Origin: Alphaproteobacteria bacterium
GTDB taxonomy: Bacteria > Pseudomonadota > Alphaproteobacteria > UBA828
Length of the DNA: 64,000 nt
Assembly (NCBI GenBank): GCA_965214705.1
Contig: OZ243972.1
Location: 3,456,001-3,520,000 of the forward strand
Direction: 5' to 3'
Shown: positions 1 through 26,689 of the stretch, in pieces
Layout: each line of letters begins with the position of its first letter
Numbering within the stretch: the first letter of the stretch is position 1
Translations under genes and position numbers: made by a program
The notes under the pieces: model-generated
What the model saw: the letters and a program-made list of their open reading frames with translations, nothing else
Database searches by the model: none
Told to the model about the DNA's origin: nothing

Positions 1-26
1 CGGCGGCGCTTGTCCTGGTTTCGGCG

Positions 27-338
27 ATGCCGGTCCCGGCAGGGGCGGGCGACGAGGAAGCGTGGGACGCCGAACGCGCTTTCGTCGAGATGGAGCGGCT
101 GCAGACGGAGATCGGGCTGCTGCGCGCCCTGGCCGGCGCGCAGGCGGCGCTGCTGGCATGGACACTCGTGCCGGAGAACCGCGAGCGGTCGGAGAGCGGC
201 GGCGCCCTGGAGGTGCTGGCGCCGCATCTCTGCATCGAGGAGGCGCTGCGGCCCTGGTGCCGTGCGCTGCCGGCCACCTTCGGCGCGGAAGCGGCAATGG
301 CGGCGGACGACGCAAACGGGAAGGACGGGGGACGATGA
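27..338 (+). CDS. hypothetical protein of the transfer/pilus operon (true start may lie upstream of the window)
   Basis: Co-oriented with the operon; its stop overlaps the next ATG (ATGA at 335-338). Confidence 0.55.
   Translation: MPVPAGAGDEEAWDAERAFVEMERLQTEIGLLRALAGAQAALLAWTLVPENRERSESGGALEVLAPHLCIEEALRPWCRALPATFGAEAAMAADDANGKDGGR
161..175 (+). repeat. 15-nt dispersed unit GACACTCGTGCCGGA (locus 1)
   Basis: Exact unit inside the CDS, read as W-TLVPE-N. Confidence 0.85.
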
Positions 339-1633
339 CGGATACGGTTCTGGCGGGCGCCGTGCTCGTGGCGATGGCGGCGCTGGCCGTCCACGACGCG
401 CGGCGCGCCCTGGTCGACCCGCGCATGGTCCTGGCGCTGCTCGGAGCGGCGGCGGCGTGGCGCTTCGGCGGCGGCGGACCGGAAGGGGACGGCACCTGGC
501 CGCGTCTGGCGAGTGGCGTGCTGGGGGCGGCGCTCGGCGTTGCCGCCGTGATGATTCCCATCGCCCTCGCCGCCTGGTGCGGGCGGCGCTGGCCGCTCTA
601 TCCGGGCGACGCGATGCTGCTGGGGGCCGTGGGGTTCCTGCTGGGGCCGCTCGGCCTCGCCTGGGCCATGGCGCTGGGCGCCGGCGCGGGGCTGCTCTAC
701 CGCTTCTGCGTGCAGCGCAAGCGCGGCCGGCCCTTCCGCAAGGGGCTGGTGCCGCTGGGTCCCGGCATGTGCGCGGGCGCGGCCGCCGTGTTCCTGTGCA
801 TGAACTTCGGCGTCGCCCTGGCGGGGAACACTGGTGCCGGAGACCCTCGGGCCGAAGACCCTCGGGCCGAAGACGGCGTGACGATCGCTCCCCTGACACC
901 CCCGGCCGCGGAACGATCGGCGCAATCGGCGCTTCCGGCGACCGAGCTTGGGCCGGCGCTGGGTTCCCTTCCGGCGGCGCTGGCCGCGCGGGAGATCTCC
1001 GTCGAGTGGGACGGGCGGGTCCCCTTTCCGGCGCTGGTGCGGCGTCTCTCGACGCTTGCCGGCACGGCGATACGGATCGAGGAGCGCCCGGCACGCATCG
1101 AGGACGGGGCGGCGGTGCTTGCCGATCCACCCGCGCTGCGCCTCGCCTGGCAGGGACCGCTCGCCGGCCTCCTCGACCGGGTGGCCGCGCTCAGCGGTTA
1201 CGCCTGGTCCTGGGAGACGCTCGCGCCGGAGACCCTCGTGCCGGAGACACTCGTGCCGGAGAACGGCGCCGTGGTGTTCTTCCGCTACTGGGACGTCGCG
1301 CAGCACGGCCCGGAGCACGGCGGCGAAACCGGCGATGCCGAGGATGGCGATGGCGGCGCGCCGGAAACCGGCGGCGGCTGGACCGTCGATCCGGACGAGC
1401 ACCGCACGCTGAGGGGCGTGCTGGAGGCGTGGGCGGCGCGTGCCGACTGGACGCTGGTCTGGAAGGCGCGCGAGGACTACGGCCTGGGCGCCGCGGCAGT
1501 GTTCGAGGGCGCCTTCCTGGAGGCCGCCGACGTCCTGCTCAGCGGCCCCGCCACGCGCCGGACATTGGACGTCCGCGCCTATGCGGCAAACCGCCACCTG
1601 GTGGTGGACGACGCCGACGGGGCGGGCTGGTGA
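335..1633 (+). CDS. A24-type prepilin peptidase fused to TcpQ/PilL-like periplasmic domains
   Basis: N-terminal hydrophobic helices with D (HDARR) and GD (YPGDAML) aspartyl motifs; C-terminal TLRGVLEAWAARADWTLVW..Y....AAVFEGAF TcpQ-like motif. Confidence 0.7.
   Translation: MTDTVLAGAVLVAMAALAVHDARRALVDPRMVLALLGAAAAWRFGGGGPEGDGTWPRLASGVLGAALGVAAVMIPIALAAWCGRRWPLYPGDAMLLGAVGFLLGPLGLAWAMALGAGAGLLYRFCVQRKRGRPFRKGLVPLGPGMCAGAAAVFLCMNFGVALAGNTGAGDPRAEDPRAEDGVTIAPLTPPAAERSAQSALPATELGPALGSLPAALAAREISVEWDGRVPFPALVRRLSTLAGTAIRIEERPARIEDGAAVLADPPALRLAWQGPLAGLLDRVAALSGYAWSWETLAPETLVPETLVPENGAVVFFRYWDVAQHGPEHGGETGDAEDGDGGAPETGGGWTVDPDEHRTLRGVLEAWAARADWTLVWKAREDYGLGAAAVFEGAFLEAADVLLSGPATRRTLDVRAYAANRHLVVDDADGAGW
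827..871 (+). repeat. three tandem degenerate 15-nt units (locus 2)
   Basis: aacactggtgccgga gaccctcgggccgaa gaccctcgggccgaa. Confidence 0.8.
1216..1260 (+). repeat. three tandem 15-nt units (locus 3)
   Basis: gacgctcgcgccgga gaccctcgtgccgga gacactcgtgccgga, encoding TLAPE-TLVPE-TLVPE. Confidence 0.9.
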
Positions 1634-2163
1634 GCGCGCCGCGCATCATGGCCCTGCTGCGGGCGGCCGCGCTCCCGGTCCTGCTCGCGGGTCCGCTTGC
1701 TGGGTGCGTGTCTTGGACGCCGGAAGCGCCGACGACGGTTGCGCCCGTGCGGACCGATCCCGTGGAGATCCGCCTGGTCGAGGCCGTCGAGCGCGCCGAG
1801 CGGGCGCTGGCTTCGCTCGCCCGGACGGTGCCGGCAACGGATCCGGAGGCGAGGCTGCCGGACGCACGGTCCGTGCCCGCCGCGCTGCGCACGCCCGTGA
1901 CGCTGGACTGGACCGGACCTGTGGACGCGCTGGCGGAGGAGTTCGCGCGGCGGGCGGGCTACCGTTTCGCGGAAGCCGGCCGTCCGCCGGCGCGGCCCCT
2001 GATCGTGTCCGTCGAGGTGGTCGCGCAACCGCTGATCGCGGTGCTCCGCGACGCGGGCCTGCGCGTGGGCGCCGCCGCCACGCTCACCGTCGATGCGGAG
2101 CGGCGGACGATCCTGCTCGACTGGGCCGCGCCGCCGGCGCTCACGCCGGAGAGGGACCGGTGA
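1630..2163 (+). CDS. dotD: DotD/TraH-family lipoprotein
   Basis: Lipobox LAGC; LDWTGPVDAL...AGYRF motif; first gene of the dotD-dotC-dotB order; alternative ATG at 1648. Confidence 0.8.
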   Translation: MSAPRIMALLRAAALPVLLAGPLAGCVSWTPEAPTTVAPVRTDPVEIRLVEAVERAERALASLARTVPATDPEARLPDARSVPAALRTPVTLDWTGPVDALAEEFARRAGYRFAEAGRPPARPLIVSVEVVAQPLIAVLRDAGLRVGAAATLTVDAERRTILLDWAAPPALTPERDR

Positions 2164-2990
2164 TGCGCATCCCGTGCGTCCTGGCCGTCGCGGCGCTCGG
2201 CATCGCGCTCGCGCCCCTCCCCGTTCCGGCCACGGAACCGCCGCCGAGCCTCGCGGCGCTGCAGGCGTTCGCACCGGAGCCCGGACCGGACGTGCCCTTC
2301 GCGGCGGAGAAACGCGCGTCGGCTGTCCGCCTTGCGGCGCTCGGGTTCGGCGCACGCGCGGGCCTCGCGCGGCGCACGTGGGAGATCGCCGCCATGCTGG
2401 ACCGGCACGGCCCAAAAATCTCCGCGATCTACCGCTTCGGCGATCTCGTGCTGCACGAGGACGGGTTCACGGTGCTGCCGCCGGTACTCGCGGAGACCCG
2501 CCGCGCCTTCCGGCTGGAACCGGCCGGCACGCGCGCGGCGAGCGCCCGGCGGGTGCTCAGGATTCTGGAGCCGGCGCGGCTGGTGAGCGCGGCGCCGGAC
2601 TGGCGCGACTGGCTGGAGCGTTCCTGGCTCCCGGCCGAGCCGCCCGCCTCAGTGCTGTTCCCGCGCGACTCGCGGGAGGACGCCCGCTGGCGGCGCCTGC
2701 TGGCCGAAGGCTGGGCCAAGGGCGTGGCCCTGGCCGACGACATTTTTGCCAGCGACCTCGACCGCCTCAACCGCACGTTCGAAGGGGTGGTTCTCTGGCA
2801 CAGGCTCAACCGCGCCGCGATGCTGACCGCGCCCGGCATCGAGGTGGAATGGGCCGGCGTTTCCGGCCACGAGAGCCTGATGCGGATCGGCGCGGCTTCG
2901 GCCCGCATCGACCGCGCCGCCCGCTTCGAACTGGACGCCGGCCGCTGGACGCCCCCGGCGGGACCCTCGGGCCGTGGAGGAGTCCGATGA
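2163..2990 (+). CDS. dotC: DotC/TraI-family type IVB secretion protein
   Basis: Signal peptide; VLPPVL, PDWRDWL, W..GW.KG..LADDIF..DL.RL.R.FEG motifs. Confidence 0.85.
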   Translation: MRIPCVLAVAALGIALAPLPVPATEPPPSLAALQAFAPEPGPDVPFAAEKRASAVRLAALGFGARAGLARRTWEIAAMLDRHGPKISAIYRFGDLVLHEDGFTVLPPVLAETRRAFRLEPAGTRAASARRVLRILEPARLVSAAPDWRDWLERSWLPAEPPASVLFPRDSREDARWRRLLAEGWAKGVALADDIFASDLDRLNRTFEGVVLWHRLNRAAMLTAPGIEVEWAGVSGHESLMRIGAASARIDRAARFELDAGRWTPPAGPSGRGGVR

Positions 2991-4135
2991 GCGCGCATCT
3001 CCATGAGAGGTGGCCCGAGGCTGGACACGGCTTCCCGGCGGAGAGGCTCGACGAATTCCTGCTCTGGGCCGCCGATCGCGGCGCTTCCGACATCGCCTTC
3101 CAGACCGGCTCTCCGGCCTTCGTCGAGATCGACGGCAATCTGCGGCGAGCGACTGCCGCCACGCTGGACGGCGTGGTCATGGGCAGACTCTGCGAGCGCC
3201 TCTACGACGCCACCGGCGAGGGCATCCTGCGCTCGGGCCGCGCCATCGACTGCTCGCACTCGATCGGGCTTGGCCGCGGTCTCACCCGGCGCTTCCGCTG
3301 CAACCTCGCCCCCGTCCAGGGCGCGGCCGGGTTCGCGGTCAACATCACGCTCAGGGTGCTTCCCGGCAGGCCCCCCACGTTCGCGGAACTGGGTATCGAG
3401 GACGGGATCGTGCGCTCGTGGGAGCTCTGCAAGGGGCTCGTCCTGGTCACCGGCGTGCCGGGCTCGGGCAAGTCCACGCTGCTCGCCGCCGGGACGCGCC
3501 ACCTGCTGGAGCGGGGCGCGGGCCGCATCCAGTCCTACGAGGCGCCCATCGAGTACGTCTTCGACGGCATCGCCGCGGACGCGGCGCTGATGTCGTCCGC
3601 CGAGATCCCCCGCCACTTCCCGAGCTTCGCGGACGGGCTGCGGTCAAGCCTGCGGCGGCGGCCTTCGGCCGTGATCGTGGGCGAGGCGCGCGACCGGGAG
3701 ACGGTCGAGGCGGTGGTGAAGGCGGCCGATTACGGCATCGCGGTGTTCTCCACCGCCCACACCATCGGCGTGGCGGCGACGGTGCGCCGCATGCTGGCCG
3801 AGTTCCCCGCGCACGAGCGGGCGGAGCGGGGCGCCGCGCTGATCGACGCCATGACGCTGGTGGTGACGCAGGTGCTGCTTCCCAACCCGCATGGCGGGCG
3901 CACGGCGCTACGCGAGTGGCTTGCCTTCGACGCAGGGCTCAAGGCGGCCCTGCTGGAGAGTCCGCAGGCCGCCTGGCCTGCGACGATCGCGGCGGCGCTG
4001 GCGGAGACCGGCAACGACCTCGCGGCTACCTCGCGGCACGCCCGCCGAGCTGGGCTGATCGAGGACGAGGGGCTCAGACGGATTCTCGCCGGGGGCGAGT
4101 CGCCGGAGATGACCGCAGGAGATGCAGGGGCATGA
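2987..4135 (+). CDS. dotB: DotB/TraJ PilT-like ATPase
   Basis: ASDI, Walker A GVPGSGKST, EAPIEY, LRRRP..VIVGEARDRET, STAHT. Confidence 0.9.
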   Translation: MSAHLHERWPEAGHGFPAERLDEFLLWAADRGASDIAFQTGSPAFVEIDGNLRRATAATLDGVVMGRLCERLYDATGEGILRSGRAIDCSHSIGLGRGLTRRFRCNLAPVQGAAGFAVNITLRVLPGRPPTFAELGIEDGIVRSWELCKGLVLVTGVPGSGKSTLLAAGTRHLLERGAGRIQSYEAPIEYVFDGIAADAALMSSAEIPRHFPSFADGLRSSLRRRPSAVIVGEARDRETVEAVVKAADYGIAVFSTAHTIGVAATVRRMLAEFPAHERAERGAALIDAMTLVVTQVLLPNPHGGRTALREWLAFDAGLKAALLESPQAAWPATIAAALAETGNDLAATSRHARRAGLIEDEGLRRILAGGESPEMTAGDAGA

Positions 4136-4150
4136 AGGAGAGAGACCGCG

Positions 4151-4441
4151 ATGGAGGCATCGGAGGCGCCGGGGAATTCTCCAGTGGCGTGGCGCGACTC
4201 GATGCGCCCGGTCAGGGCGTGGGCGTTCGACGCGCGCCTGCTGATCCTGGCGCTGCCTTGGCTGTTCCTGCCGACCTGGTGGACGACGGCGCTGGTCGCG
4301 GCGGCGATGCTGGCCTGCCGCGCGGCAGAGGCGCGGGGCTACCGGCTCGCTGCGGCCGTGCGCGCCCTGCGCAGCCTGAGCGCGGGAAGGCGCCGGGCGC
4401 TCCACGCCGCCCGTCTGCGCCGCTTCACGGATTTCGGATGA
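4151..4441 (+). CDS. icmT: IcmT/TraK-family membrane protein
   Basis: WRDSMRPVRAWAFDAR N-terminal motif, two hydrophobic segments, position after dotB. Confidence 0.75.
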   Translation: MEASEAPGNSPVAWRDSMRPVRAWAFDARLLILALPWLFLPTWWTTALVAAAMLACRAAEARGYRLAAAVRALRSLSAGRRRALHAARLRRFTDFG

Positions 4442-4899
4442 CGGGCGCGGCGCTGGCGATCGCGCTGCTCGCGCTGTGGGCGGGTCAGACCGAGGCCGGG
4501 TTCCGTTACCTGCCGCCCGAGGCGGAGGAGACCGCGCCGGGAAAGGCGGATATCGGGGCTCCGCCCGGTCCCGGCCCGGCGGTCTCGGACCCGGGGGTCT
4601 CCGGCACCAGGGTCTCCGGCGCGAGCGTCTGGCGGGTGCGCGAGGGCGAGATGCTGCGCGCGGTGCTGGCGCGCTGGGCGGAGCGGGCCGGCACGGACGT
4701 CGTGTTTCTGACCGACCGCCGCTACCGGCTGGACGGCGATGCGGCGTTCGAGGGCGGGTTCGCGGATGCGGCGCAGGCGCTGTTCCGAAGTCTGTCGCAT
4801 CTCCCGCACGCACCGGTGGCCGCACGATCCGAAGGCGGGACGACGCTCGTCGTGAGGCACCGGATGCCGGGCTTCCACGGAACGGAGGCGGTTCCATGA
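4438..4899 (+). CDS. TcpQ/PilL-like domain secreted protein
   Basis: Signal peptide; W.VREGEMLRAVLARWAERAG..V.....YRL...AAFEGGF motif. Confidence 0.7.
   Translation: MTGAALAIALLALWAGQTEAGFRYLPPEAEETAPGKADIGAPPGPGPAVSDPGVSGTRVSGASVWRVREGEMLRAVLARWAERAGTDVVFLTDRRYRLDGDAAFEGGFADAAQALFRSLSHLPHAPVAARSEGGTTLVVRHRMPGFHGTEAVP
4585..4629 (-). repeat. three tandem 15-nt units on the minus strand (locus 4)
   Basis: Reverse complement reads gacgctcgcgccgga gaccctggtgccgga gacccccgggtccga. Confidence 0.8.
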
Positions 4900-5798
4900 A
4901 ACGGACATCGGGGCAACTCGTGGCGGCGGCGATGCTGGCCCTGTGCCTGGCGGCGACGGTGCCGCTGGGGACGGAAGCCGGCGAGCCGGACTTGGGGCAC
5001 GAGGCTCTCCGGGCCGAGGGTCTGGTCTCGGCGCTACGGGCCAATGGTGCGGGGGTTCTCCCGCTGGGTGTGCGCGGCGGGCTCGACGGCTTTTTCGTCA
5101 CGCCGGCCAGGGGTGCGGGCTACAGCCTGTACGTCACGGAAGATGGCCATGCGGTTGCAGGCCTGCTCTACGGGCCGGACGGAACGGAGATTACCGGCGC
5201 GCAGCTCGCCGCGGCGCGGCGGCCGGCGGCGGATTTGGCGCAAGGCGCCGGTGGCACGACGCCGGAGACACTCGTGCCGGAGACGGCGGCGCCGGCGATG
5301 ACCGCCCATGCGACGCCGGACACCGGCGGACCGGCGTTCTCCTCGCCCTCCCGGACGGGTCTGTTCGAGCGGAGTGCCGCCGCCTTCGGCTTCACCCTTG
5401 GCGAGCGCGGCCCCCTGGCGGTACTGCTCGGGGACCCCACGTGCTCGTTCTCGCGCTCGGCGGCGGCCAGGCTCGGCCGCGCGGCTCTGGACGGGCGCCT
5501 GCAATTGCGGGTGGTGCCCGTGGCGGTCCTCGGCGCCGACGCCGCGCGCCGCGCTGTCGCCATCGCCGCGCATCCCGAGCCGGCTCGCGCGTGGTTCGAG
5601 GGCAGCGGCGTGGCGCACCCTCGTGCCGCAGATCGCGCTTTCGCCGAACGGATCGCCCGCAACAACGCCCTCTTCGGCGCCTGGGGCGCGACCGCCGTGC
5701 CGCTTATCGCCTGGCAGACGCGCGACGGTGCGGTGGAACACCGGATCGGCGACATCGACGACGTGGACGCCTGGCTCCGGGAGACGGGCCTTGAGTAG
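4896..5798 (+). CDS. DsbG/DsbC-like thioredoxin-fold periplasmic protein
   Basis: Signal peptide; LYVTEDGHAVAGLLY dimerisation region; DPTCSFS, VVPVAVLG and ATAVP cis-Pro loop. Confidence 0.7.
   Translation: MKRTSGQLVAAAMLALCLAATVPLGTEAGEPDLGHEALRAEGLVSALRANGAGVLPLGVRGGLDGFFVTPARGAGYSLYVTEDGHAVAGLLYGPDGTEITGAQLAAARRPAADLAQGAGGTTPETLVPETAAPAMTAHATPDTGGPAFSSPSRTGLFERSAAAFGFTLGERGPLAVLLGDPTCSFSRSAAARLGRAALDGRLQLRVVPVAVLGADAARRAVAIAAHPEPARAWFEGSGVAHPRAADRAFAERIARNNALFGAWGATAVPLIAWQTRDGAVEHRIGDIDDVDAWLRETGLE
5267..5281 (+). repeat. 15-nt unit (locus 5)
   Basis: Exact unit with degenerate neighbours (TTPE-TLVPE-TAAP). Confidence 0.85.
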
Positions 5799-6447
5799 CC
5801 GCCTGCAAGCCGTGCGCGCGGCGGCCCGGAAATTCGCGTTCCACCGCGACCAGCACCACGGCTGGCGCCGGGCGACCGCGTGGCTGCTCGCCTGCAACGT
5901 GCTGACGGCCCTGGCCTTTGCGGGCTACGTCTGGATGCACTCCACCGTCTACATCGCCGTCGCCGCGACCCCGGACGGCAGGCTCGTGCGGCTCACCCCG
6001 CTCGACGAGCCGATCATGTCCGACGCTGCGCTCAGGAACTGGACCGTCTCGGCGGTCACCGAGGCCTTCACGCTCGGCCACCACGACTGGCGGCTCCGGC
6101 TCGCCGGCATCCGCGAGTATTTCACCGACGACGGCTACGAGTCCTTCCTCAAGGGTCTTGAGGAAAGCCTGTTTCTCGACCGTCTCCGCGACAATCTCCA
6201 GGTCGCCTCGGCCGTGGCGCAGGGCGCGCCGGTGATCGTGGACACGCGCTTCTATGGCGCGCGCGTCGGCTGGGCTGTCGAGTTCCCCATCCTGGTCACC
6301 TTCTCGGCCGGCACGCGGCGCGTCAGCCAGGAGCTGGTGGCGCAGGTGCTGGTGATGCGGGTGCCCCTCGACGAGCGCCCCGCCGGCATCGCCATCGAGC
6401 AGCTCATCGCCGGCAAGAACTCCCCGGACCGGAGAGGAAGCACATGA
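5791..6447 (+). CDS. dotI: DotI/IcmL/TraM family protein
   Basis: One TM helix, then ATPDGRLVRLTPLDEP..SDAALRNW..AV..AF...HHDWR..L...YFT.DG; TTG start inferred. Confidence 0.85.
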   Translation: MSSRLQAVRAAARKFAFHRDQHHGWRRATAWLLACNVLTALAFAGYVWMHSTVYIAVAATPDGRLVRLTPLDEPIMSDAALRNWTVSAVTEAFTLGHHDWRLRLAGIREYFTDDGYESFLKGLEESLFLDRLRDNLQVASAVAQGAPVIVDTRFYGARVGWAVEFPILVTFSAGTRRVSQELVAQVLVMRVPLDERPAGIAIEQLIAGKNSPDRRGST

Positions 6448-8027: not shown

Positions 8028-8192
8028 AGGCTTATCCCTCTGGCTCCGGTTCCCCAACATGTTGTACCGGCCACCTCGGCGGCGGTATCCGACACGGTCG
8101 CAGTTCCTTCCGTGTCTCAATGGGTTGCCCGTAAAGTGCCCAGCGATCCGGCACCCCACATATGGAGAAGCCGGATGTAAGGGGATAAGCCT
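8028..8192. mobile_element. 165-bp IS1595-type MITE
   Basis: aggcttatccctctggctccgg ... ccggatgtaaggggataagcct terminal inverted repeats; no transposase. Confidence 0.7.
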
Positions 8193-8215
8193 TTGGGAGA
8201 AATATCAGAAAAATG

Positions 8216-9717: not shown

Positions 9718-9795
9718 AATGGTGATGTGAACTACACCGGAAAATTGGACGAATTCTTGAAAGATCATTCAACAGATTTCGTCGAATTGAGGTAA

Positions 9796-12110: not shown

Positions 12111-12123
12111 AAGGAATTCTCCC

Positions 12124-19911: not shown

Positions 19912-19915
19912 GGCG

Positions 19916-22192
19916 ATGCGCCCGCTCCGCTTCCTGTTCGCCCCCGAGCTCGGCCGCCCGCTTGCCGAAGCCCTGCAATCGGCAACCGTGCTGCGGTCGC
20001 TGATAGAAGCGGTGCGCCGGCCGGGGACGCCGCGCGCAGGGAGGGACGACGAAGCCCGGGGCGAGGCCGGGAGCGGGTATCGGGCGGAGGACGGCAGAGC
20101 CGCAGGCCGGAATTCCCGCGCGGCCGCCGATGCACCGAGCGCAGGCTACCGCTCCGGCCTCCTCTGGGCGGCACTGCTGCTCGCGGGCGTGGGTCTTGCC
20201 GTGGCTGCGATACCCCCGCCCGATCCGGCCTCGGCGCAGTCGATCGAGCGCGGCCTCTTCGCCGACACCGACAGCGCGACACGTGAGGTCCTGGCTTTCC
20301 TCGGCGGGCTGGGCGCGCACGGTCCCTCGGCCGTCGGCGACATGCTCTTCGCCTTCAACGCCGGCGTCCTTGTGCTCGCCGGGTTCCTGCTGGTCTGGCA
20401 CGCCGCCGCCGGCACCGTGGATACCGCGCGGGAGGGGCGCTTCGGGTTCGGCGCCTGGGCCATCGTGCGCATCGTCACCGCCGTCGCCCTGATGGCGCCG
20501 CTGCCGGGCGGGCTCAACGGGGCGCAGCACGCGGTGGTGGGACTGGCCCATCTCGGCGGGGACTTCGCCAACGCCGTCTGGCGGCCCTTCTCCGAGGAGG
20601 CGCTGGCCGAGAGCCGGCCCATCGTGCCGCGCCCCCGCGAGGCGCTCTGGCGGGCGGCGATCGCGCGCACGCTGATCGCCGAGACCTGCGCCAGGACGGC
20701 CAACGAGAGCGCGGCACAGGCGGGCGACGACCCCTATGTGGAGATCGACGAGGACGACGGCACGCTGACCTTCAGCTACGACGGCGACGGGCGCGGCATG
20801 CCGGACGGGATGTGCGGTTCGATCCGCTTCTCCGGCCTGGAGGCGGACGGCGCGCCCGGCCTCGCGGCCGAAGGCCACCGCCGGGCGCTCACCGGCGTGC
20901 TCCCGGCCGTCCGTGCCATCGCCGCCGGCCTCGCGGCCCACTACGTCCCCGGCACGCCCCTATACGGCCGCCCGCTGCCCGACATCGATGCCCTGCTCAC
21001 CGGGCAGGACTTGGCGGGAATCTATGCGCGGGTGCTCGACAGCGCGCTGACCCAGGCCGCCTCCGAGGAGCGCGAGACCCTCGCGCGTGTGGTGGCCGAG
21101 GACGCGCGGGAGGCGTCCTGGATGGCGGCGGCCTCCTTCTTCAACACCATCGCCCACCGCGTGGGCCTCTTCCAGGCCGCCGCCCACAACGTCCCCTCGG
21201 TGGCGCTGCCCACGCCGAGCCTCGACGAGTGGGTCCCTGCCGCGGACGCAGCCGTGAAGGGGGTCGCGGCGCAGCTCGCCCGTTCGCGGGACTATCACCC
21301 GATGCTGCTGTCGGCTGCCGACGCAGGCGCGGGCGCGCTGCCCGCGTCGGGGGACGGCGACGGCGGCATGGTCTCCGGCCTGCTGGAGTTCATCGACCTG
21401 GACTCGGTCATCGTCGCCGACAGCGGCAACCCCATCGCCGACCTGGCCGCTTTAGGGCATGGACTCCTCAATGCCGCGCTCGCTGCCGTCGCGGCGCTCA
21501 TGGGCGCCGCCACCGGCTCGGGGCTTCTGGAATCGATCCCCTTCATCGGCAAGGGGCTCGACGTCTTCGAATCCGCCTGGCAGGTCTCCGACGCCCTGGT
21601 GTCGACCCTGCTCGGCCTGCTCATCATCGCCGGCGCGGTGCTGGCCTACGTGCTGCCCGCGCTCCCCTTCATCCGCTTCCTGTTCGGCATCCTGGGCTGG
21701 ATCCTGAACGTGGCGATCGCGGTGCTGGCCGTGACCGTGTTCGCCGTCGCCCACGTCACCCGCGAGGACGGGGACCGGCTCACCGTCCAGGCCACCCGCC
21801 AGGGCTGGCTGTTCCTGCCCGCGCTGGTGCTGCGGCCCGCGCTGATGCTGCTGGGCCTCATCCTCGGCTACTTCGTCTTCCTCGCCGCCATCGGGCTCTT
21901 CAACCAGGTGTGGCTGCCGCAGATGCGCGACGCGGGCGCGAGCGGTGGGCTCGGCCCGGTGGGCTTCCTCGCCATGCTCGCGCTCTACGTCATCGTCGCC
22001 TACGGGCTGATGAACGCCTCCTTCAAGCTGATCGACCTGCTGCCCTCGGCCGTCCTCGACTGGATCGGCGGGCGCGCGGGCGCGGGCGAGGACGGGGGCG
22101 AGCGGGCCGGGGGGACGGCGGTGGCGGGGTTCTCGCGCCTGAGCGCCGTGCGGGTCGGCGCCCGCGCCAGGCGCGGCGGGGCCGGAGGCTGA
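19916..22192 (+). CDS. dotA: DotA/TraY family polytopic membrane protein
   Basis: FN.GVL, GTVDTAREG.FG, W..VR.V....LMAP...G.NGAQ, W..AA.FF, Y.LP.LPFI.F, LRP.LML.GL, I..LP..VL.WIGG. Confidence 0.9.
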   Translation: MRPLRFLFAPELGRPLAEALQSATVLRSLIEAVRRPGTPRAGRDDEARGEAGSGYRAEDGRAAGRNSRAAADAPSAGYRSGLLWAALLLAGVGLAVAAIPPPDPASAQSIERGLFADTDSATREVLAFLGGLGAHGPSAVGDMLFAFNAGVLVLAGFLLVWHAAAGTVDTAREGRFGFGAWAIVRIVTAVALMAPLPGGLNGAQHAVVGLAHLGGDFANAVWRPFSEEALAESRPIVPRPREALWRAAIARTLIAETCARTANESAAQAGDDPYVEIDEDDGTLTFSYDGDGRGMPDGMCGSIRFSGLEADGAPGLAAEGHRRALTGVLPAVRAIAAGLAAHYVPGTPLYGRPLPDIDALLTGQDLAGIYARVLDSALTQAASEERETLARVVAEDAREASWMAAASFFNTIAHRVGLFQAAAHNVPSVALPTPSLDEWVPAADAAVKGVAAQLARSRDYHPMLLSAADAGAGALPASGDGDGGMVSGLLEFIDLDSVIVADSGNPIADLAALGHGLLNAALAAVAALMGAATGSGLLESIPFIGKGLDVFESAWQVSDALVSTLLGLLIIAGAVLAYVLPALPFIRFLFGILGWILNVAIAVLAVTVFAVAHVTREDGDRLTVQATRQGWLFLPALVLRPALMLLGLILGYFVFLAAIGLFNQVWLPQMRDAGASGGLGPVGFLAMLALYVIVAYGLMNASFKLIDLLPSAVLDWIGGRAGAGEDGGERAGGTAVAGFSRLSAVRVGARARRGGAGG

Positions 22193-22237
22193 CCGGGCCG
22201 CGGCGGGGTCAACGATCGAGGGAGGTCTTCACACGCC

Positions 22238-24226
22238 ATGAGAGTAATCCAACCGGGCCTCTGCGCCCTCCTGCTGGCGGCAGGCGCGGGCTGGGCCGCC
22301 TGGCTGACCGCCGGCGACCGGCCGGAGGAAGTCGCTGCCATCGTGCTCGGCGCGGCCGTGGCGGCATCGTTGCTGGCTTATTTCACGGGGGACCGGAAGG
22401 ACTCCTTCCTCTGGCTCCGCTTCGGCCTCTACGGCGGCGCCCTCGCGGTGGCCTGCGCCTCGCTCTGGACCGGCGCCGTGCGCCCCCTCCAGCACGCGCC
22501 CTCCCTCGGCGCTGTCACGGGCTGGCTCGAGGGGCTCGGCGGCATGCGGCTGGTCATGCTCGTGGCGCCGCTGGCGGCCGCTTGTGTGCTCGGCATGCTC
22601 TGGTTCGAGGTGGCCGCCGCCGGCGTCCGGCATCTGGGCAGAAGCGACCGCCGCCGCCGCGCCGACTCCGACCTGCACGGGCATGCCCGCCTGCTCGGCC
22701 GCCGCTTCCTGCGCCGCCTCGCCAGGCGGAGCGGCATCCTGCTCGGCCAGTGGGGCGGAGGCGGCAGGGCGCCGCTGATCGGCTGGTCGCTCGAAGGGTC
22801 CGCCATCACCGTCGCCCCGCCGCGCACCGGCAAGGGCGCCACCATCGCCCTCAACCTGCTTTCTCCGGACGGGCGCGGCTTCGCGGGCTCGACCGTCACC
22901 ATCGACCCGCGTGGCGAGCTCTGGTGCATCGCCGCCCGGCGGCGGCGCCAGATGGGACGCCGCGCGGTCCTGCTGGACCCCTTCGGAGTGGTGGAGGGCC
23001 ACAGGGCGGCGTTCCCCGAGTGCCATCTGCCGGACGCGGGCAGCGCCGCCTACAACCCTCTGGAGTTCATACGCGAGAAGGAGGACGAGGCGGTCCGCGA
23101 CATCAACGTGCTGCTCGACGCCCTGCTCACACCGCCCCGTCCCGGCGCCCACGACAACAGCCGGCACTTCTACGAGTCGGCCCGCGCCATCGTCGCCGGC
23201 TACCTTGCCTGGGTGCGCTTCAGGAAGCCGTCCGGGGAACGCACTCTCAAGCGCGTGCACGAGCTGCTCTCGCAGACGCCGGAGGAGCGCAAGGCCTTCG
23301 CGGCCGAGGTCGCCGGCGAAAAACCCTTCGCCGGCGGGCTCGCCCATATCGCCGTCGAGCGCCAGGCCCAGGTCGGCGCCGAAGAGGGCGGCTCCAACTT
23401 CACCACCATCGCCAACCAGCTCGCCTTCCTCACCTATCCCGCGCTGGCGGACAACACCGCCCGGTCGAGCTTCGACCCCCTGGTGCTCGCGGACGGCGAG
23501 ACCGACCTGTTCGTCGTCGTGCCGGAAGACGCCATCGAGCACGTCAAGGGCTGGCTCCGCCTCTGGGTCGCCATCCCCAACGCGGTCGCCGGCATCAGGC
23601 CGCTCAAGCGCGACATGCTGATCGTCATCGACGAGATGCCGCGCCTCGGCTTCCTCAAGCCGGTGATGGACGGCTACACCATGGCCGCCGGCAAGGGCGT
23701 GCACTTCTGGTGCTTCGCCCAGTCGATCTCGGCGCTGGACTCGAGCTGGGGCAAGGAGCACCGCAAGACGCTCCTGCACCTCGCCGAGGTGGTGCAGGTG
23801 ATGGGCTTTCCCCGCACCGACGCGGAAGGCGCGGAGGAGCTGTCGAAGGCGATCGGCACCGCCACCTTCGAGGGCCGTACCGAGAGCCGGTCGGGGACGA
23901 TCGCCGAGAACCGCATCGTCACCGCCAACACCCAGTGGCAGGCGGGCGAGTCCCGCAGTCTCGTGCGCGAGCGGCTGGTGACGCCCGACGAGCTGATGAC
24001 GCTGGGGCCGGACCGCCAGTACGTGATCGCCGCGCCTAAGGACATGCCGCGCGACGCGCTGCATCTCCACCACGCGCACTATTGGCGGCGCCCGGACACG
24101 GAATTCCACGCCGATCCCAACCCCTTCGTGATCCGCAAGGAGCGCGCAGCCGACGGCCCGTCCGGGCCGGGCACGCTCCGGCCGTTGCTGCGCGGACGGG
24201 CCCTGTTCGGAAGGAGGACCGCATGA
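22238..24226 (+). CDS. VirD4/TraG-family type IV coupling protein
   Basis: N-terminal TMs, HGHAR, APPRTGKG, IDPRGE, YNPLE, IDEMPRLG, AQS.S.L...WG, ERL.TPDE. Confidence 0.9.
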   Translation: MRVIQPGLCALLLAAGAGWAAWLTAGDRPEEVAAIVLGAAVAASLLAYFTGDRKDSFLWLRFGLYGGALAVACASLWTGAVRPLQHAPSLGAVTGWLEGLGGMRLVMLVAPLAAACVLGMLWFEVAAAGVRHLGRSDRRRRADSDLHGHARLLGRRFLRRLARRSGILLGQWGGGGRAPLIGWSLEGSAITVAPPRTGKGATIALNLLSPDGRGFAGSTVTIDPRGELWCIAARRRRQMGRRAVLLDPFGVVEGHRAAFPECHLPDAGSAAYNPLEFIREKEDEAVRDINVLLDALLTPPRPGAHDNSRHFYESARAIVAGYLAWVRFRKPSGERTLKRVHELLSQTPEERKAFAAEVAGEKPFAGGLAHIAVERQAQVGAEEGGSNFTTIANQLAFLTYPALADNTARSSFDPLVLADGETDLFVVVPEDAIEHVKGWLRLWVAIPNAVAGIRPLKRDMLIVIDEMPRLGFLKPVMDGYTMAAGKGVHFWCFAQSISALDSSWGKEHRKTLLHLAEVVQVMGFPRTDAEGAEELSKAIGTATFEGRTESRSGTIAENRIVTANTQWQAGESRSLVRERLVTPDELMTLGPDRQYVIAAPKDMPRDALHLHHAHYWRRPDTEFHADPNPFVIRKERAADGPSGPGTLRPLLRGRALFGRRTA

Positions 24227-24876
24227 CGGAGAAGCAGGCGCCGCCCGGAAGCGAGAGGGAGGCGGAGGCCTCCGCGGGACCGCTGTTCGCCGCCGCAGAG
24301 GCCGACGGGACCGGGAGCGATGCCGCAATGGCGGCAAGCCCCCCGGCCGAAAGCGCGGGCGCCGAAGGCGGGCCGGCGCAGGGCGGTGCACCGCAGGACG
24401 GGGACGCGGAGGACGCGGCGGCGCGCGGGGAGGCGCCCGACGATCCTGGCCGGCTGAACCAGAACATGGAGCAGATGCTCGAATCGATGGACGGCCTTCT
24501 CGACGTTCTCCTGAAGACGCAGGCGCGGCTGGGCGCGGCCGGGAGCGAGGGCGAGACGGAAGCGGGTGGCGGGGAAGCCGCCCCGGCCGCGGACGGTGCG
24601 GCGGTGCATGCCGCCGACTTCTATCGCTGGATCGAGACCGACCGGCGGCGCAGGCGCCGGTGGTCCGGCCTCGCCCTGGCGGCCGCGGCGCCGGCCGCGC
24701 TGCTGCTCGGCCTTCTGATCCAGCAGCAGTTCCAGATCGTCCCCGTGCACGATCCGAGCGGGGGCTGGAGCGGCTGGATCTGGGAGACCCACGGGCGCGC
24801 CATCGTCGACTGCGCCGTGGAGGCGAGGCAGACGAACGGCGAGGTCGAGTGCCCGCTGGTCGTTCGACGGCCGTGA
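24223..24876 (+). CDS. membrane-anchored hypothetical protein
   Basis: RBS aggagg, ATGA overlap, acidic low-complexity N-terminus, one TM, C-terminal Cys pair. Confidence 0.6.
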   Translation: MTEKQAPPGSEREAEASAGPLFAAAEADGTGSDAAMAASPPAESAGAEGGPAQGGAPQDGDAEDAAARGEAPDDPGRLNQNMEQMLESMDGLLDVLLKTQARLGAAGSEGETEAGGGEAAPAADGAAVHAADFYRWIETDRRRRRRWSGLALAAAAPAALLLGLLIQQQFQIVPVHDPSGGWSGWIWETHGRAIVDCAVEARQTNGEVECPLVVRRP

Positions 24877-24972
24877 CGGCGCCGGAGCCGGCCGGAATAT
24901 CGCGCCCCCGCGCAGCTTTCCTGCGCGCGCCTGCCCCGGATGGAGAGCGCGGCGGGGCACGGCGCCCCGGAG

Positions 24973-24987
24973 GACACTCGTGCCGGA
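24973..24987 (+). repeat. 15-nt unit, intergenic (locus 7)
   Basis: Exact gacactcgtgccgga ending 22 nt before the ATG at 25010. Confidence 0.85.
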
Positions 24988-25009
24988 GATGGCCGGAAAG
25001 GAGCGCTAG

Positions 25010-26689
25010 ATGACCGACAGCGACGGCACCGAGACCGCCGAGACGGCGATGAGCAACGCGTTCGACAGGGCGGGCTATACTAGCCCCGGCGCCGACGCGC
25101 CGTCCGACGATGGGCCGGAGCCCCGGCATTACGCCTCGCCCACCGCCGCCATCTGCGACCACGCCGCCCTCTACGGCGCCACCCCCGAGCCCGGCGAGCC
25201 CGACAACCGCGTCGTCTGGGACGAAGCCGAGGCCGTCGCCGGTATCGAGCAGACCGTCCACACGCTGATCGAGAACGTCGTCCCCGACGGCACCCAGCTC
25301 GCCGACGAGCGCGAGGGCCTGCTGTGGGGGTTTGTGAACATGCTGCACGCGCAGGCGGACCGCATCGACCGGACGGCCGACAAGATCGTTCTCGAGATGC
25401 GCGACCTCGAACGCGCCCAGGACGGCACCGAGGTGAAGGCCCTCGAGCTGGAGCGCCTTACCGAGCGCGCCAGGAACCTCGGCGATCGCCGCGACGCCTT
25501 CGAGACGATGCGCGACTTCGCCGCGGACGCGTACCGCGTCGAGACCGGCCAGGTCTGGCGCCCGCGCCGCGGATCGCATACCAGCCGGACCGGCCAGCTC
25601 ACCTCCGCCGCCATTGACGCCCGCGACTTCCGGCGCGCCCGCAAGGACAGCGAGACCCGCGCGCACCTGCCGCAGGGCACCCTGGTGGCCATCGCCGGCG
25701 GCAAGGAGGTCGCGGACGGCGCCGCCGTCTGGACCACGCTCGACCGCACCCGCGAGAAGTACGGCGACATGGTCCTGCTGCACGGCGGCAGCCCCGGCGT
25801 CGAGAAGATCGCGGCGAGCTGGGCCGAGGCGAGGGGCGTCGACCAGGTGGTGTGCCGCCCGGACTGGAACGCGCACGGCAAGGCCGCGCCCTTCCGCAGG
25901 AATGACGAGCTGCTGAACCTGTTGCCCAAGGGCGTCATCGCGTTCCCCGGATCGGGCATCACCGGAAACCTGGTCGACAAGGCGCGGAAGCTCGGCATCC
26001 CCGTTTACCGAGTTCCCGAGCGCACGGAGGCGACACCCCTGGTGCCGATCTATGCCGGGGTCGGCGCCCGGGCGACGCCCGAGCCGGTGCTCGCCCACAT
26101 GCGGGAGATCGCGGAGCGGCTCGGCGAGCGCGGCTGGCGGCTGCGCACCGGCGGCGCGGACGGGGCCGACAAGGCTTTCGCCGCCGCCGCGCCCGCCGAC
26201 CGGCGCGAGGTCATCGTGCCCTGGCGCGGCTACAACGGCCTGGACACTGGTGCCGGAGACGGGAGCGCCTGCCGCGTGCTCACGCCGGCCGAGATCGAGG
26301 CGATGCGGCCGCTCGCAGAACCTCACCATGCCGCATGGGAGCGCTGCGCGGCGAAGGTGCGGGACCTTCACGCCCGCAACGTCGCCGTCCTGCTGGGAAC
26401 CGATCTGAAACAGCCGGCGCAGGCCGTGGTGTGCTGGACCAGGGACGGCCAGGACTACGGCGGTACGGGACTGGCCATCCGCCTCGCGCAGCATCACCGG
26501 ATCCCGGTTCTCAACCTCGCCGAGATGGATATGCGCACGGCGATGGATCGCCTGGAACGGATCGCACAGACGCTCGACCGCAGGAACGACAAGCAGGAAG
26601 CCGTCGGCGGCCGTTCCGCGGACGCAGACCGGCACGCGTCGGCCGACCGGGTGCAAAAGGCGACCCGGCAGCGCTCCATGCATCTCTGA
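25010..26689 (+). CDS. DUF2493 (YspA-related SLOG) protein with a second C-terminal SLOG-like domain
   Basis: LLHGG.PG.E.IA..WA..RGV.Q....PDW..HGKAAPFRRN; second domain YAGVGARATP...LRTGGADGAD...GGTG.AIR.A....IPV.NL. Confidence 0.8.
   Translation: MTDSDGTETAETAMSNAFDRAGYTSPGADAPSDDGPEPRHYASPTAAICDHAALYGATPEPGEPDNRVVWDEAEAVAGIEQTVHTLIENVVPDGTQLADEREGLLWGFVNMLHAQADRIDRTADKIVLEMRDLERAQDGTEVKALELERLTERARNLGDRRDAFETMRDFAADAYRVETGQVWRPRRGSHTSRTGQLTSAAIDARDFRRARKDSETRAHLPQGTLVAIAGGKEVADGAAVWTTLDRTREKYGDMVLLHGGSPGVEKIAASWAEARGVDQVVCRPDWNAHGKAAPFRRNDELLNLLPKGVIAFPGSGITGNLVDKARKLGIPVYRVPERTEATPLVPIYAGVGARATPEPVLAHMREIAERLGERGWRLRTGGADGADKAFAAAAPADRREVIVPWRGYNGLDTGAGDGSACRVLTPAEIEAMRPLAEPHHAAWERCAAKVRDLHARNVAVLLGTDLKQPAQAVVCWTRDGQDYGGTGLAIRLAQHHRIPVLNLAEMDMRTAMDRLERIAQTLDRRNDKQEAVGGRSADADRHASADRVQKATRQRSMHL
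26243..26257 (+). repeat. 15-nt unit (locus 8)
   Basis: gacactggtgccgga (1 mismatch) inside the CDS. Confidence 0.8.

Follow-up and report, generated by a model that had tools for sequence, protein, structure and literature searches.

Rickettsia palindromic elements (RPEs) are dispersed repeats that lie in frame within unrelated protein-coding genes and are tolerated by the host proteins; they are about 150 bp long, encode a conserved peptide and are found across chromosomal metabolic genes (PMC10969869). The mobile GC clusters of yeast mitochondria, of which GC42 is an example, are small, GC-rich and sporadic, with dinucleotide direct-repeat flanks (AG, or ACT), and form substitution-bearing subfamilies that vary in copy number while preserving structure, with no known enzyme; GC42 itself is 42 nt long, has a real hairpin and resides mostly in intergenic AT-rich organelle DNA (PMC4478555).

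The 15-nt unit analysed here, GACACTCGTGCCGGA, resembles RPEs and intragenic MITEs in being dispersed in frame, over at least 12 genes, and in matching clean gaps of 5n residues in homologs. Unlike an RPE, however, it has only 15 bp and no long palindrome, can be translated in five frames, occurs in tandem arrays and is restricted to conjugative elements; and whereas elements of the RPE and intragenic MITE kind measure roughly 50-400 bp and have terminal inverted repeats or a long palindrome, the unit has a dyad of 3+3 bp and folds no better than shuffled sequence. With the GC clusters it shares small size, GC richness and sporadic occurrence, a dinucleotide repeat flank (GA), empty sites with one copy of the dinucleotide, structure-preserving subfamilies that vary in copy number and the lack of a known enzyme, but compared with GC42 it is shorter (15 nt), forms no stable hairpin of the sort whose loops gather the substitutions, covaries only at positions 4 and 9 and lies nearly always in coding sequence.

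REP and REPIN sequences are short dyad-symmetric repeats with a lineage-restricted spread and compensatory changes in the dyad, mobilised by RAYT, a Y1 HUH protein; REPs are extragenic, lie on the chromosome in their hundreds and are associated with a RAYT gene. The unit is likewise short and dyad-symmetric, with a spread inside one lineage and compensatory dyad changes, but it is intragenic and present on mobile elements only, and Y1 was found in 0 of the 21 genomes of the genus. VNTRs, as known from surface or secretion proteins, originate locally; as in VNTRs, 0 to about 9 in-frame copies vary among close homologs of the genes concerned, but identical solo units also occur at unrelated sites, in both orientations and several frames. 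The sfx sites of shufflons delimit segments that can invert, are restricted to the 3' end of pilV and go with an Rci recombinase. Like sfx, the unit is a short in-frame repeat that occurs both ways round in the transfer region of an IncI-like element, and a PilV with a Shufflon_N domain is encoded immediately upstream of the window, by which we mean the whole stretch of 64,000 nucleotides analysed. Unlike sfx, the units extend over the whole transfer region (about 40 kb, a dozen genes) and occur in F-type elements too, and no inversion between unit copies was seen in the island alignments. DNA uptake sequences (DUS/USS) number hundreds to thousands over the core chromosome, whereas there are 25 exact units, in islands only; and unlike an operator or a parS-like site, the unit shows no above-background conservation at orthologous sites, which may be present or absent among homologs.

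Distribution in the window and the genome

Exact copies of the unit occur at five places in the window, 161, 1246, 5267, 6768(-) and 24973, where 100 shuffles gave an expectation of 0.00. Allowing up to two mismatches there are 12 copies, exact ones included (starts 161, 827, 1216, 1231, 1246, 4600(-), 4615(-), 5267, 6753(-), 6768(-), 24973 and 26243), against an expected 0.25 and a maximum of 2 in the shuffles, which bears out the recurrence of the unit described in an earlier note on this DNA. At up to three mismatches there are 20 matches versus 4.09 expected; this cut-off brings in 842, 857, 5008(-) and 5616, together with a match at 23998 and an IS-internal motif (three times), both of which we treat as chance. 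The observation of the earlier note is confirmed. It had partly missed 842, 857, 5008(-) and 5616, and in its minus-strand array at 4585-4629 two units lie within two mismatches while the third (4585-4599) is more diverged than was implied. The degenerate tandems it described are also seen by Tandem Repeats Finder, which reports 15-nt arrays at 836-874, 1213-1262, 4566-4601 and 4597-4630. By our own codon-score gene caller, seven of the eight loci are intragenic, as had been stated, and lie within plus-strand ORFs. The carrier backbone and the loci are as follows.

1..26689, plus strand: backbone of a type IVB (IncI/Dot-Icm-like) conjugative element, the unit carrier (Pfam)
161..175, plus strand: solo exact unit in a 103-aa ORF (27-338) with no Pfam family; peptide TLVPE; a derived insertion
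827..871, plus strand: diverged 3-unit array in a 432-aa TcpQ-domain (PF10671) protein (335-1633), after its membrane domain; NTGAG-DPRAE-DPRAE
1216..1260, plus strand: 3-unit array in the same 432-aa protein, directly before the TcpQ domain; TLAPE-TLVPE-TLVPE, flanked by WSWE and NGAVVFFRYW
4585..4629, minus strand: inverted 3-unit array in a 153-aa TcpQ-domain protein (4438-4899); SG(T/A)xVx
5008..5022, minus strand: diverged inverted unit of the C/G subfamily (3 mismatches) in a 292-aa ORF (4920-5798)
5267..5281, plus strand: solo exact unit, in the 292-aa ORF just named; TLVPE
5616..5630, plus strand: decayed unit (3 mismatches)
6753..6782, minus strand: two inverted units in the N-terminal part of DotH/IcmK (6510-7448); the copy at 6768 is exact and common to island I1, that at 6753-6767 has 2 mismatches
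24973..24987, plus strand: exact unit in a 133-nt gap 5' of a SLOG-domain gene, the sole intergenic copy in the window
26243..26257, plus strand: 1-mismatch unit in a 559-aa SLOG (YspA-like) gene (25010-26689); DTGAG

Beyond 26257 the window holds IS91 copies, group II introns and SMODS/CBASS-like genes, and no unit at up to two mismatches; the reported absence of the unit from such genes is thus confirmed at that threshold. The suspicion of an assembly artefact can be dismissed, because contigs from four public runs in two studies agree at every base with window positions 1-460, the unit at 161 among them.

Pfam identifies DotD, TraI, a DotB-like ATPase, DotI, DotH, SSB and a coupling protein in the backbone. 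The element extends 13 kb upstream of the window, with genes for a PilN-like secretin, an ATPase, PilS and PilV (thin pilus) and about 10 further units. In the 7.9-Mb genome, all 25 exact units lie inside five conjugative islands that make up ~2% of the DNA, and there are no exact copies on the chromosome outside them; degenerate matches number 10-24 per 20-kb bin in islands and at most 4 elsewhere. The carrier islands encode type IVB and thin-pilus systems and also F-type T4SS (Pfam), and the units occupy at least 12 different genes, dispersed over about 40 kb, and occur in F-type islands as well. In congeners, units are found in Sno-helicase ICE genes, in TraF and in a MobC/RHH-like gene. 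Of the carrier genomes, G003 (100% complete) has 20 exact copies, G019 has 18 and G001 has 14, and in every element, across 14 species, one and the same consensus is the most frequent form. By contrast with the carriers, two type IVB sister islands in this genome have no units (X1) or weak matches only (X2), and the F-type islands of G002 and G035, close relatives of the F-type carriers, have 0-1 weak matches at 70-87% nucleotide identity. Outside the genus we found one possible chromosomal case, in a 1.6-Mb genome whose sdhD-like gene has a tandem in its tail. The elements that carry units are conjugative and belong to one genus, in which they form certain type IVB, F-type and helicase-bearing lineages, and the units sit in DNA-transfer genes of mobile elements of one sponge-associated bacterial group.

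Among 104 units in called genes, usage of the six frames is 35/33/25/8/3/0, and 68 units are co-oriented with, and 36 inverted relative to, co-directional genes, counts that, like our other counts across islands, include near-duplicate islands (I2/I3) and related elements and are therefore not independent. This one sequence gives rise to five different peptides, among them TLVPE, D(T/P)xAG/PRAED and SGTSV as first reported; because five of the six frames are used, the unit is a DNA-level element, as the earlier note had concluded. A strand bias of the Chi or KOPS type is not seen in these orientations, and the chromosome is without the motif.

Insertion 5' of GA, array growth and decay

The units are derived insertions, because homologous islands and proteins show clean gaps of 15, 30 or 45 nt (5n residues) in their place, as had been anticipated from the sequence. 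Clean-flank indels between homologous islands are most often 15 nt long (n = 64, 40 of them with the unit; 24 of 12 nt and 20 of 18 nt), and the longer ones are units in 15/15 cases at 30 nt and 5/6 at 45 nt. The site at 161 and one near the N-terminus of pilS are filled in this island only and are empty in the other aligned homologous islands, where the former reads …CTGGCGTG followed directly by GAACCGCG…; TraK, TraV and SSB of unit-free relatives likewise show 5n-residue gaps. Over 25 solo insertions, the base at +1 is G in 23 and that at +2 is A in 20, with GA following the unit in 20 events; position -1 is G in 17 and A in 7. The same 15 bases have entered conjugation and mobilisation genes anew, at sites with no relation to one another, directly 5' of a GA dinucleotide and mostly after a purine, the empty sites reading R/GA. 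Since the unit itself begins with GA, the result is a GA…GA bracket, like a 2-bp target duplication. Target sites are only weakly more structured than control G/GA sites (mean energy -13.9, n = 18, versus -12.0, sd 3.7).

Once resident, a unit grows and shrinks as a tandem array of 0 to about 9 copies. Across 120 aligned homologous proteins there are 0 to about 5 copies at 827..871 and 0 to about 9 at 1216..1260, the latter site being empty in several homologs (WSWE-(E/D)G-AVVFHRYW). The site at 5008 has three copies in a paralogous island, that at 5616 three in the paralogous island I1, and in a congener (locus L053) there are five at 24973 and two at 26243 (6827 in that locus). Such abundant variation at fixed sites is what an ordinary minisatellite would give, with slippage acting locally and the shared sequence due to protein-level selection for similar linker peptides or to common descent, and Streptomyces, Myxococcota and other genomes outside the genus do contain local 15-nt tandems, GC-rich and unrelated, that match the degenerate pattern. 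Yet one DNA sequence encodes five peptides, solo exact copies stand where all other compared homologs are empty, and non-homologous genes of unrelated T4SS types carry the unit. Frame usage and solo insertions both contradict a minisatellite-only reading, which we regard as extremely improbable.

The core of the unit, C3-N4-C5 / G8-N9-G10, is a small dyad (3+3 bp) in which positions 4 and 9 are the sole covarying complementary pair: they are Watson-Crick partners in 255 of 303 units, with a mutual information of 0.583 bits (0.086 for the next pair). Orthologous unit pairs altered at both positions swap one Watson-Crick pair for another in 33 of 37 cases, bearing in mind that the alignment of units within arrays may be out of register, and the pairing is intra-unit (42/66) rather than between neighbours (8/33). 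Variant subfamilies, too, colonise new sites, with the 4/9 complementarity maintained. As free single-stranded DNA the unit forms no stable hairpin (solo units, z -0.2 to -1.3 versus shuffles), and arrays fold worse than shuffles (z +1.9 and +2.6), so the covariation may point to a dimeric protein.

Copies decay at about the rate of the flanking DNA, divergence inside and outside units being 6.2% versus 5.3% and 3.6% versus 4.9%. This bears on the earlier suggestion of a protein-binding signal tolerated in genes, be it a partition, silencing, regulatory or transfer protein site. The strong over-representation, restricted to transfer modules, the dyad-symmetric core and the fact that diverged islands have some copies in common (e.g. 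6768) might be expected of such a putative site. Nevertheless, close homologs carry 0 to about 9 copies per site, sister elements of both T4SS types work without units, the copies occur in both orientations and five frames with no positional logic, and new sites arise by insertion of a whole 15-mer and not by point mutation. Flank-like divergence, together with the unit-free sister islands and chromosome, tells against a role in binding, uptake or partition, and the close F-type relatives are without the unit as well; a nucleoid-type signal fares no better. A functional site thus seems improbable, and in our reading the units are not a signal.

How the units may propagate

We favour, tentatively, the view that the units, which behave like tiny selfish repeats, form a neutral, self-propagating family of frame-neutral mini-insertions, 15 bp long and serving no evident function. 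Selection would act as a filter only, leaving survivors where five extra residues are tolerated: the units lie in variable linkers or in N-terminal or C-terminal stretches of proteins, and copies would persist in linkers, signal-peptide-proximal stretches and protein tails because 15 bases add five residues and contain no stop in any frame. During conjugative replication, when an element is excised or single-stranded, new copies may be templated by those it already carries, probably through a short copy-and-return (template-switch-like) event that GA(C) microhomology anchors and the dyad core promotes; array length would then shift by slippage. Copying from copies on the same element implies a founder effect, in that an element without a seed copy would never gain units, and we count the unit-free sister and F-type islands (X1, X2, G002, G035) in favour as a founder pattern. 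A microhomology of 2-3 nt cannot by itself explain why this sequence gets copied, however, and copying in cis leaves unexplained the seeding of three unrelated element types but not of the far larger chromosome.

The shared consensus across elements and 14 species can be explained by a trans-acting specificity no less well than by copying from copies. A dedicated sequence-specific enzyme acting in trans, such as a dimeric nuclease, recombinase or transposase-like protein, might read the dyad core and either insert the unit at GA or duplicate it there, so that the unit would resemble a non-autonomous transposon of minimal size that duplicates 2 bp of its target; such an enzyme could be host-encoded or lie among the many unannotated backbone genes. 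The symmetric 4/9 covariation and the spread of symmetric subfamilies, as from a homodimer on two half-sites, are consistent with it, as are the GA…GA bracket, the consensus common to three unrelated element types and the lack of a stable hairpin in free DNA. Against it, an enzyme acting in trans should also strike the chromosome and the co-resident X1 and X2 islands, yet both are unit-free, and a substrate of 13-15 bp is, to our knowledge, smaller than any transposon end pair. Nor does a co-occurring enzyme of the kind sought in the earlier note track the units: no gene family was found that is present in carrier islands but missing from unit-free sister islands. We consider a dedicated enzyme unlikely, if worth serious thought. 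Two named candidates were rejected, namely IS91, whose Y2 transposase is present in only 3 of the 21 genomes of the genus, and RAYT, whose Y1 domain (PF01797) matched in control genomes and in none of the 21; no unit was seen at IS ends.

A reverse-transcriptase, telomerase-like writer that adds the unit at nicks from an RNA template with GA at both ends would account for the fixed length and phase, the GA terminal redundancy and bracket, and arrays of up to about 9 copies, and this genome is rich in reverse transcriptases of group II introns (57 RVT_1 matches), of which the window has two. But the carriers G003, G001 and G019 are without an RVT_1 match, so that reverse transcriptase fails as a candidate; variant subfamilies at new sites would need several templates; no non-coding copy stands out, the lone intergenic one being itself a variable array site; and Rfam finds only a group II intron in the window. 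Such a writer is therefore very improbable. The "repeat-writing process" of the earlier note is still a candidate, in that something does place the same 15 bases at new sites, while its RNA-templated form is weakened by the reverse-transcriptase-free G003 and by the failure to find a co-occurring enzyme gene.

Returning to self-propagating mini-insertions, a bolder version, which we put forward as speculation and think doubtful, is that no self-propagating DNA element smaller than this unit, with its dyad-containing core of 13 bp and a GA, has yet been seen, and that it is copied and inserted only in the excised or single-stranded transfer phase by the conjugative replication machinery or by a dimeric sequence-specific enzyme. 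If this were true, it would be a natural process that writes frame-preserving five-residue tags into transfer proteins.

Copies of the unit and the islands that carry them

The 15-nt unit GACACTCGTGCCGGA occurs exactly five times in the window, at 161, 1246, 5267, 6768 (minus strand) and 24973, and not once in 100 dinucleotide-preserving shuffles. Using dinucleotide shuffles and permuted motifs as nulls, we counted 12 copies at two or fewer mismatches against 0.25 expected, and 20 at three or fewer against 4.09; Tandem Repeats Finder places 15-nt arrays at 836-874, 1213-1262, 4566-4601 and 4597-4630. Every unit locus listed in the earlier note is present, although the copy at 4585-4599 (minus) is more diverged than that list implied and two decayed copies, at 5008 (minus) and 5616, had been left out. 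The same note saw no units in IS elements, introns or CBASS genes, and we likewise find no copy at two or fewer mismatches past position 26257. Besides pairs of an IS91-type transposase and an integrase, this stretch contains two nested ORFs for group II intron reverse transcriptases, a SMODS/CBASS-like gene, and genes for a Toprim protein and another SLOG protein.

The window spans C1:3456001-3520000 of the source genome (G000; 7.92 Mb, 67% G+C, three contigs), which contains 25 exact copies, and 63 at one or fewer mismatches. The genome-wide count that had been proposed as a check places all 25 exact copies inside five islands, which together make up about 2% of the genome. A degenerate form, GACNCNCGNGCCGGA, has 441 hits at one or fewer mismatches, a total that is unremarkable beside six permuted control patterns (81-498); its matches are bunched, with 10-24 per 20-kb bin in the islands versus 4 or fewer elsewhere.

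The five islands of the source genome that contain the exact unit copies
I1: C1 1.280-1.291 Mb
I2: C1 1.973-1.976 Mb
I3: C1 3.023-3.028 Mb
Window island (window plus 13 kb upstream): C1 3.449-3.481 Mb
I5: C3 0.240-0.251 Mb

By their Pfam matches, two of the islands (the window island and I1) are IncI/Dot-Icm-like type IVB systems that also encode a thin pilus (PilN-like secretin, ATPases, PilS, PilV with Shufflon_N, DotD, TraI, DotI, DotH, SSB and coupling protein), and I2, I3 and I5 are F-type systems (TraE, L, K, B, V, C, U, N, F, H and G, TrwC relaxase and TraD); genes were called with the author's codon log-odds caller rather than a standard gene finder. The F-type islands I2 and I3 (C1:1,953,000-1,978,700 and C1:3,020,400-3,049,000) lie in opposite orientations and form a mosaic of near-duplicate sequence: identity is 99.96% across some 8 kb and about 92-95% to either side, which suggests that the 8-kb tract stems from recent recombination or conversion between the two.

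Other features of the type IVB islands
Window 335-1633: single ORF with a polytopic membrane domain, in place of prepilin peptidase, and a C-terminal TcpQ domain; the fusion is kept in 120/120 homologs retrieved, and PF01478 is also present in one
Window 13,884-17,798 (1304 aa) and 19,916-22,192 (758 aa): type IVB backbone ORFs with no Pfam family at E<=0.01 and no units
I1, G000 C1:~1,291,350-1,291,500 (locus L045 16350-16500, minus): N-terminus of a small IcmT-like ORF with four tandem 33-nt composite units, each having one C/G-subfamily unit in the loop of a CCAGGG…CCCTGG inverted repeat

Four public runs, from two studies, have contigs that match window positions 1-460, the unit at 161 included, at every letter. 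The unit is thus no artefact of assembly, one of the ways in which the earlier note said it could be refuted. Those runs list no 15-nt indel polymorphism within samples, contigs being uninformative on rare variants, and some public-run contigs contain joints between unit copies that look like assembly-graph chimeras. Sequence words of the window recur, in small shares, in runs labelled as metagenomes of sponges or corals.

Of 20 other species in the genus, 14 have the exact 15-mer, always in clusters (e.g. 20 copies in 20 kb of G003, a congener); of 20 genomes outside the genus, none has it. A reversed control pattern gave no match. In congeners, further units occur in TraF, in ICE genes for strawberry-notch-type helicases, and at the tail of a small MobC/RHH-like gene. 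When 185,579 species genomes were scanned for a degenerate dimer, every match to the true family came from a record with Rhodospirillales or Alphaproteobacteria MAG in its title. Matches in other groups, among them Streptomyces, Myxococcota and Clostridia MAGs, were set aside as unrelated: each is a lone local GC-rich tandem that lacks the ACT…T core.

Natural controls come from islands that are nearly free of units. Two co-resident type IVB islands have the full gene set and a DotI 74-76% identical to that of the window, yet X1 (C1 1.60-1.66 Mb) has no units and X2 (C3 0.325-0.375 Mb) weak hits only; the dotI of X2 contains an in-frame TGA. Likewise, G002, from the same genus, and G035, from another family, have F-type islands that share synteny with I2 (nucleotide identity 66-87% for G002 and 69-81% for G035) and contain 0-1 weak hits. 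The host genus is thus insufficient and the type of secretion system is not the determinant: unit carriage is a property of element lineages. A possible exception to confinement on conjugative elements is found in G041, an alphaproteobacterial chromosome of 1.6 Mb and about 54% G+C, where the palindromic G6 variant GACACGCGTGCCGGA forms a tandem of two exact copies with decayed flanking copies (C1:~1,346,460-1,346,520; locus L035 2455-2515). This tandem, the sole such locus in that genome, encodes the C-terminal tail (…APETRVPETRVPETLVP…) of an sdhD-like gene directly before sdhA.

Drift, reading frames and derived insertion

The earlier note had proposed that the unit might be a protein-binding signal of the partition, nucleoid or uptake type. 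The copies drift like their flanks: in the diverged parts of I2 and I3, unit columns differ at 6.2% versus 5.3% outside in one comparison and 3.6% versus 4.9% in the other, and the arrays shared by the window island and I1 diverge about as much as the coding sequence around them. Together with the near-absence of units from X1, X2 and the F-type relatives, this argues against such a signal. The unit is a genuine, strongly non-random feature and not a signal of the kind that the note suggested.

We took a census of reading frames over 104 units within one mismatch of the degenerate form in called island genes, a set that includes the near-duplicate I2 and I3 and a few chance matches. Five of the six frames are in use, which bears out the earlier reading that conservation is at the DNA level and yields several peptides; 68 units run along the host gene and 36 against it.

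Reading frames of 104 units
D(T/P/A)RAG: 35
TLVPE-like: 33
SGTSV (opposite strand): 25
LRHEC/LRPEG: 8
Fifth frame: 3
Sixth frame: 0

Since 15 nt make five codons, the unit is frame-neutral. A design free of stop codons is nothing special: read as tandems, 15-mers drawn at random from the islands lack stops in all six frames in 72% of cases, and shuffled units do so in 43%.

At a DNA identity of 75-84%, the window island and I1 have arrays in common at window 827, 1216, 4585 and 6768, and differ by a clean 15 nt at window 161 and at I1 1279973, 1280986 and 1286049, by 30 nt at I1 1283937, and by one versus three copies at I1 1289870. Extending the comparison to 12 genomes of the genus, from which 18 island stretches were taken, and counting indels with well-aligned flanks, we obtained the following spectrum.

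Indels between island stretches, with the number that contain a unit
3 nt: 84 events, 0 with unit
6 nt: 30 events, 0 with unit
9 nt: 12 events, 1 with unit
12 nt: 24 events, 2 with unit
15 nt: 64 events, 40 with unit
18 nt: 20 events, 2 with unit
30 nt: 15 events, 15 with unit
45 nt: 6 events, 5 with unit

At window 161 and in the third codon of a pilS-like gene 3.2 kb upstream of the window, the unit is present in this island alone and the site is empty in the other aligned homologous islands; judged from these alignments, the polarity of the change at both sites is clearly that of a gain. Aligning host proteins to their homologs, as had been suggested, does reveal differences by blocks of 5n residues. 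Among 120 aligned homologs (61-100% identity) of the 432-aa membrane and TcpQ-domain protein, the first site has 0 to about 5 pentapeptide copies and the stretch between WSWE and (N/D/E)GAVVF has 0 to about 9, with zero in several of the more distant homologs, and TraK, TraV and SSB of I2 and I3 have extra blocks of 15, 25 and 20 residues that are absent in unit-free F-type relatives.

Target site and the pairing of positions 4 and 9

The target was defined from 25 non-redundant solo insertions, none of them beside another unit. The first base after the unit is G in 23 of 25 and the second A in 20 of 25, the base before it is G in 17 and A in 7, and empty sites read R|GA (e.g. TG|GAAC); the third base after the insertion is C in 12 of 25, matching the unit's own start. 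Because the unit starts with GA, the insertion point is ambiguous by two bases, and on this evidence the unit looks like a 13-bp core plus a 2-bp target duplication.

Among 303 units the most variable positions are 4, 6, 9 and 15, which are the A/T positions except for the conserved A at 2. Positions 4 and 9 form a Watson-Crick pair in 255 of 303 (A-T 185, C-G 53, G-C 15, T-A 2), counts that are not independent since the elements are related and register slips are possible inside arrays. The mutual information of the pair is 0.583 bits versus 0.086 for the next pair, and 0.399 versus 0.156 over 88 distinct sequences. In 213 aligned orthologous unit pairs both positions had changed in 37, and 33 of these went from one Watson-Crick pair to another; where neighbours are heterogeneous, pairing holds within the unit in 42 of 66 cases versus 8 of 33 between neighbours. 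The T-A variant takes the Arg codon CGA, uncommon in genomes of high G+C, and position 9 is synonymous in the frame concerned. Coding does not explain the covariation. Both the A-T and the C-G subfamilies occur as solo insertions at new sites.

A stable DNA hairpin is not supported: the core CNC(T/G)CGN'G forms no stable fold as free single-stranded DNA, solo units having z of -0.2 to -1.3 and arrays being worse than shuffles. Insertion into hairpin loops fares no better, a strict loop being found at 1 of 18 sites versus 20% of controls, with a weak energy difference of about 0.5 sd. Inspection of the arrays by eye gave no clear age gradient within them.

Candidate writers, analogues and proposed mechanism

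The earlier note had also raised a templated writing process with a co-occurring enzyme; neither our comparison of island proteins nor surveys of transposases and reverse transcriptases found an enzyme gene that tracks the units. An all-against-all of island proteins gave no family that is present in carriers of both secretion-system types yet missing from X1 and X2, and carrier and unit-free type IVB islands differ just in coupling-protein type and one small ORF. The IS91 Y2 HUH transposase has 62 matches in G000, but only 3 of 21 genus genomes are positive and unit-rich G001, G003, G008, G010 and G019 have zero. RAYT/Y1 transposases are found in 0 of 21 genomes of the genus, and RVT_1 is missing from unit-rich G003, G001 and G019. 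Nor is the unit an IS terminus or excision footprint: no IS end has it, and unit-derived 10-11-mers outside the islands have unrelated flanks, except in one four-copy gene. Three copies of the same IS contain the unit-like GACGCTCGCGCCGGT some 150 nt in (at 32909, 37529 and 62925), which amounts to one chance match. The window's one intergenic unit, at 24973, marks a site of variable array length where a congener has five units. Group II intron is the only Rfam match in the window.

Repeated and mobile sequences seen during the search
Window 32,760-32,810; 37,380-37,430; 63,040-63,090: perfect ~40-nt hairpins that end IS91-family elements (Y2 transposase plus tyrosine integrase); their 13-mers are the commonest in the genome (about 185 copies), and the family is nearly missing in congeners
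Window 40,323-43,742: two RT/maturase ORFs (402 and 592 aa) back to back, with Rfam group II intron domain V-VI at 43,656-43,742
C2:555,647; C3:910,227; C1:1,882,330; C3:1,681,127: four-copy gene outside the islands with one unit-like sequence (GCCACTCGTGCCGGA/G, then GAC)

The units do not fit REP/RAYT, uptake sequences, Chi, parS-like sites or shufflon sfx sites, lacking in each comparison a defining feature that was tested. In the article texts of the literature searched the 15-mer GACACTCGTGCCGGA was not found, and the matches listed from it held nothing relevant on small in-frame 15-bp or dispersed repeats of conjugative or type IV secretion elements. In-frame selfish repeats are known at 100-150 bp, on chromosomes. 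There are two nearest analogues. Rickettsia palindromic elements share with the unit that they are in-frame and tolerated; they are about 150 bp and chromosomal (PMC10969869), whereas the unit is 15 bp and lies on conjugative elements. The mobile GC clusters of yeast mitochondria also have a flanking repeat (AG/ACT), subfamilies, variation that preserves structure and no known enzyme, yet they are hairpins of 42 nt that lie for the most part between genes (PMC4478555).

The alignments show a 15-bp unit that inserts de novo at R|GA, grows into arrays, decays at a flank-like rate, spreads as dyad-preserving subfamilies and is limited to some conjugative-element lineages. We hypothesize that new units are copied from existing ones on the same molecule, in an excised or single-stranded phase, from which both the founder pattern and the clean chromosome would follow. 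A template switch anchored on GA(C) would be the simplest copying route, though alone it leaves the sequence specificity unexplained; symmetric covariation without a stable hairpin leaves room for a dimeric enzyme acting on the unit. Selection would act just as a filter for tolerated positions, namely linkers, N-termini after signal sequences, and tails. We rate the unit as an in-frame selfish mini-repeat. Unusual features are its small size, a confinement to conjugative elements, a dinucleotide as target and a symmetry rule that involves one pair.

Insertions that are derived, a target dinucleotide, the existence of subfamilies and a need for symmetry are all hallmarks of mobility, yet the unit is tracked by no transposase, RAYT or reverse transcriptase. 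In practice it disrupts short-read assemblies, inflates the apparent protein diversity of metagenomes and is a handy marker for this element pool in communities that live with sponges and corals. Should a link to the transfer phase be borne out, the unit would reflect a mutational process peculiar to conjugative DNA, one that would account for the way linker lengths of outer-membrane core proteins (TraK, TraV, DotH, TcpQ-like) and SSB tails vary between related elements.
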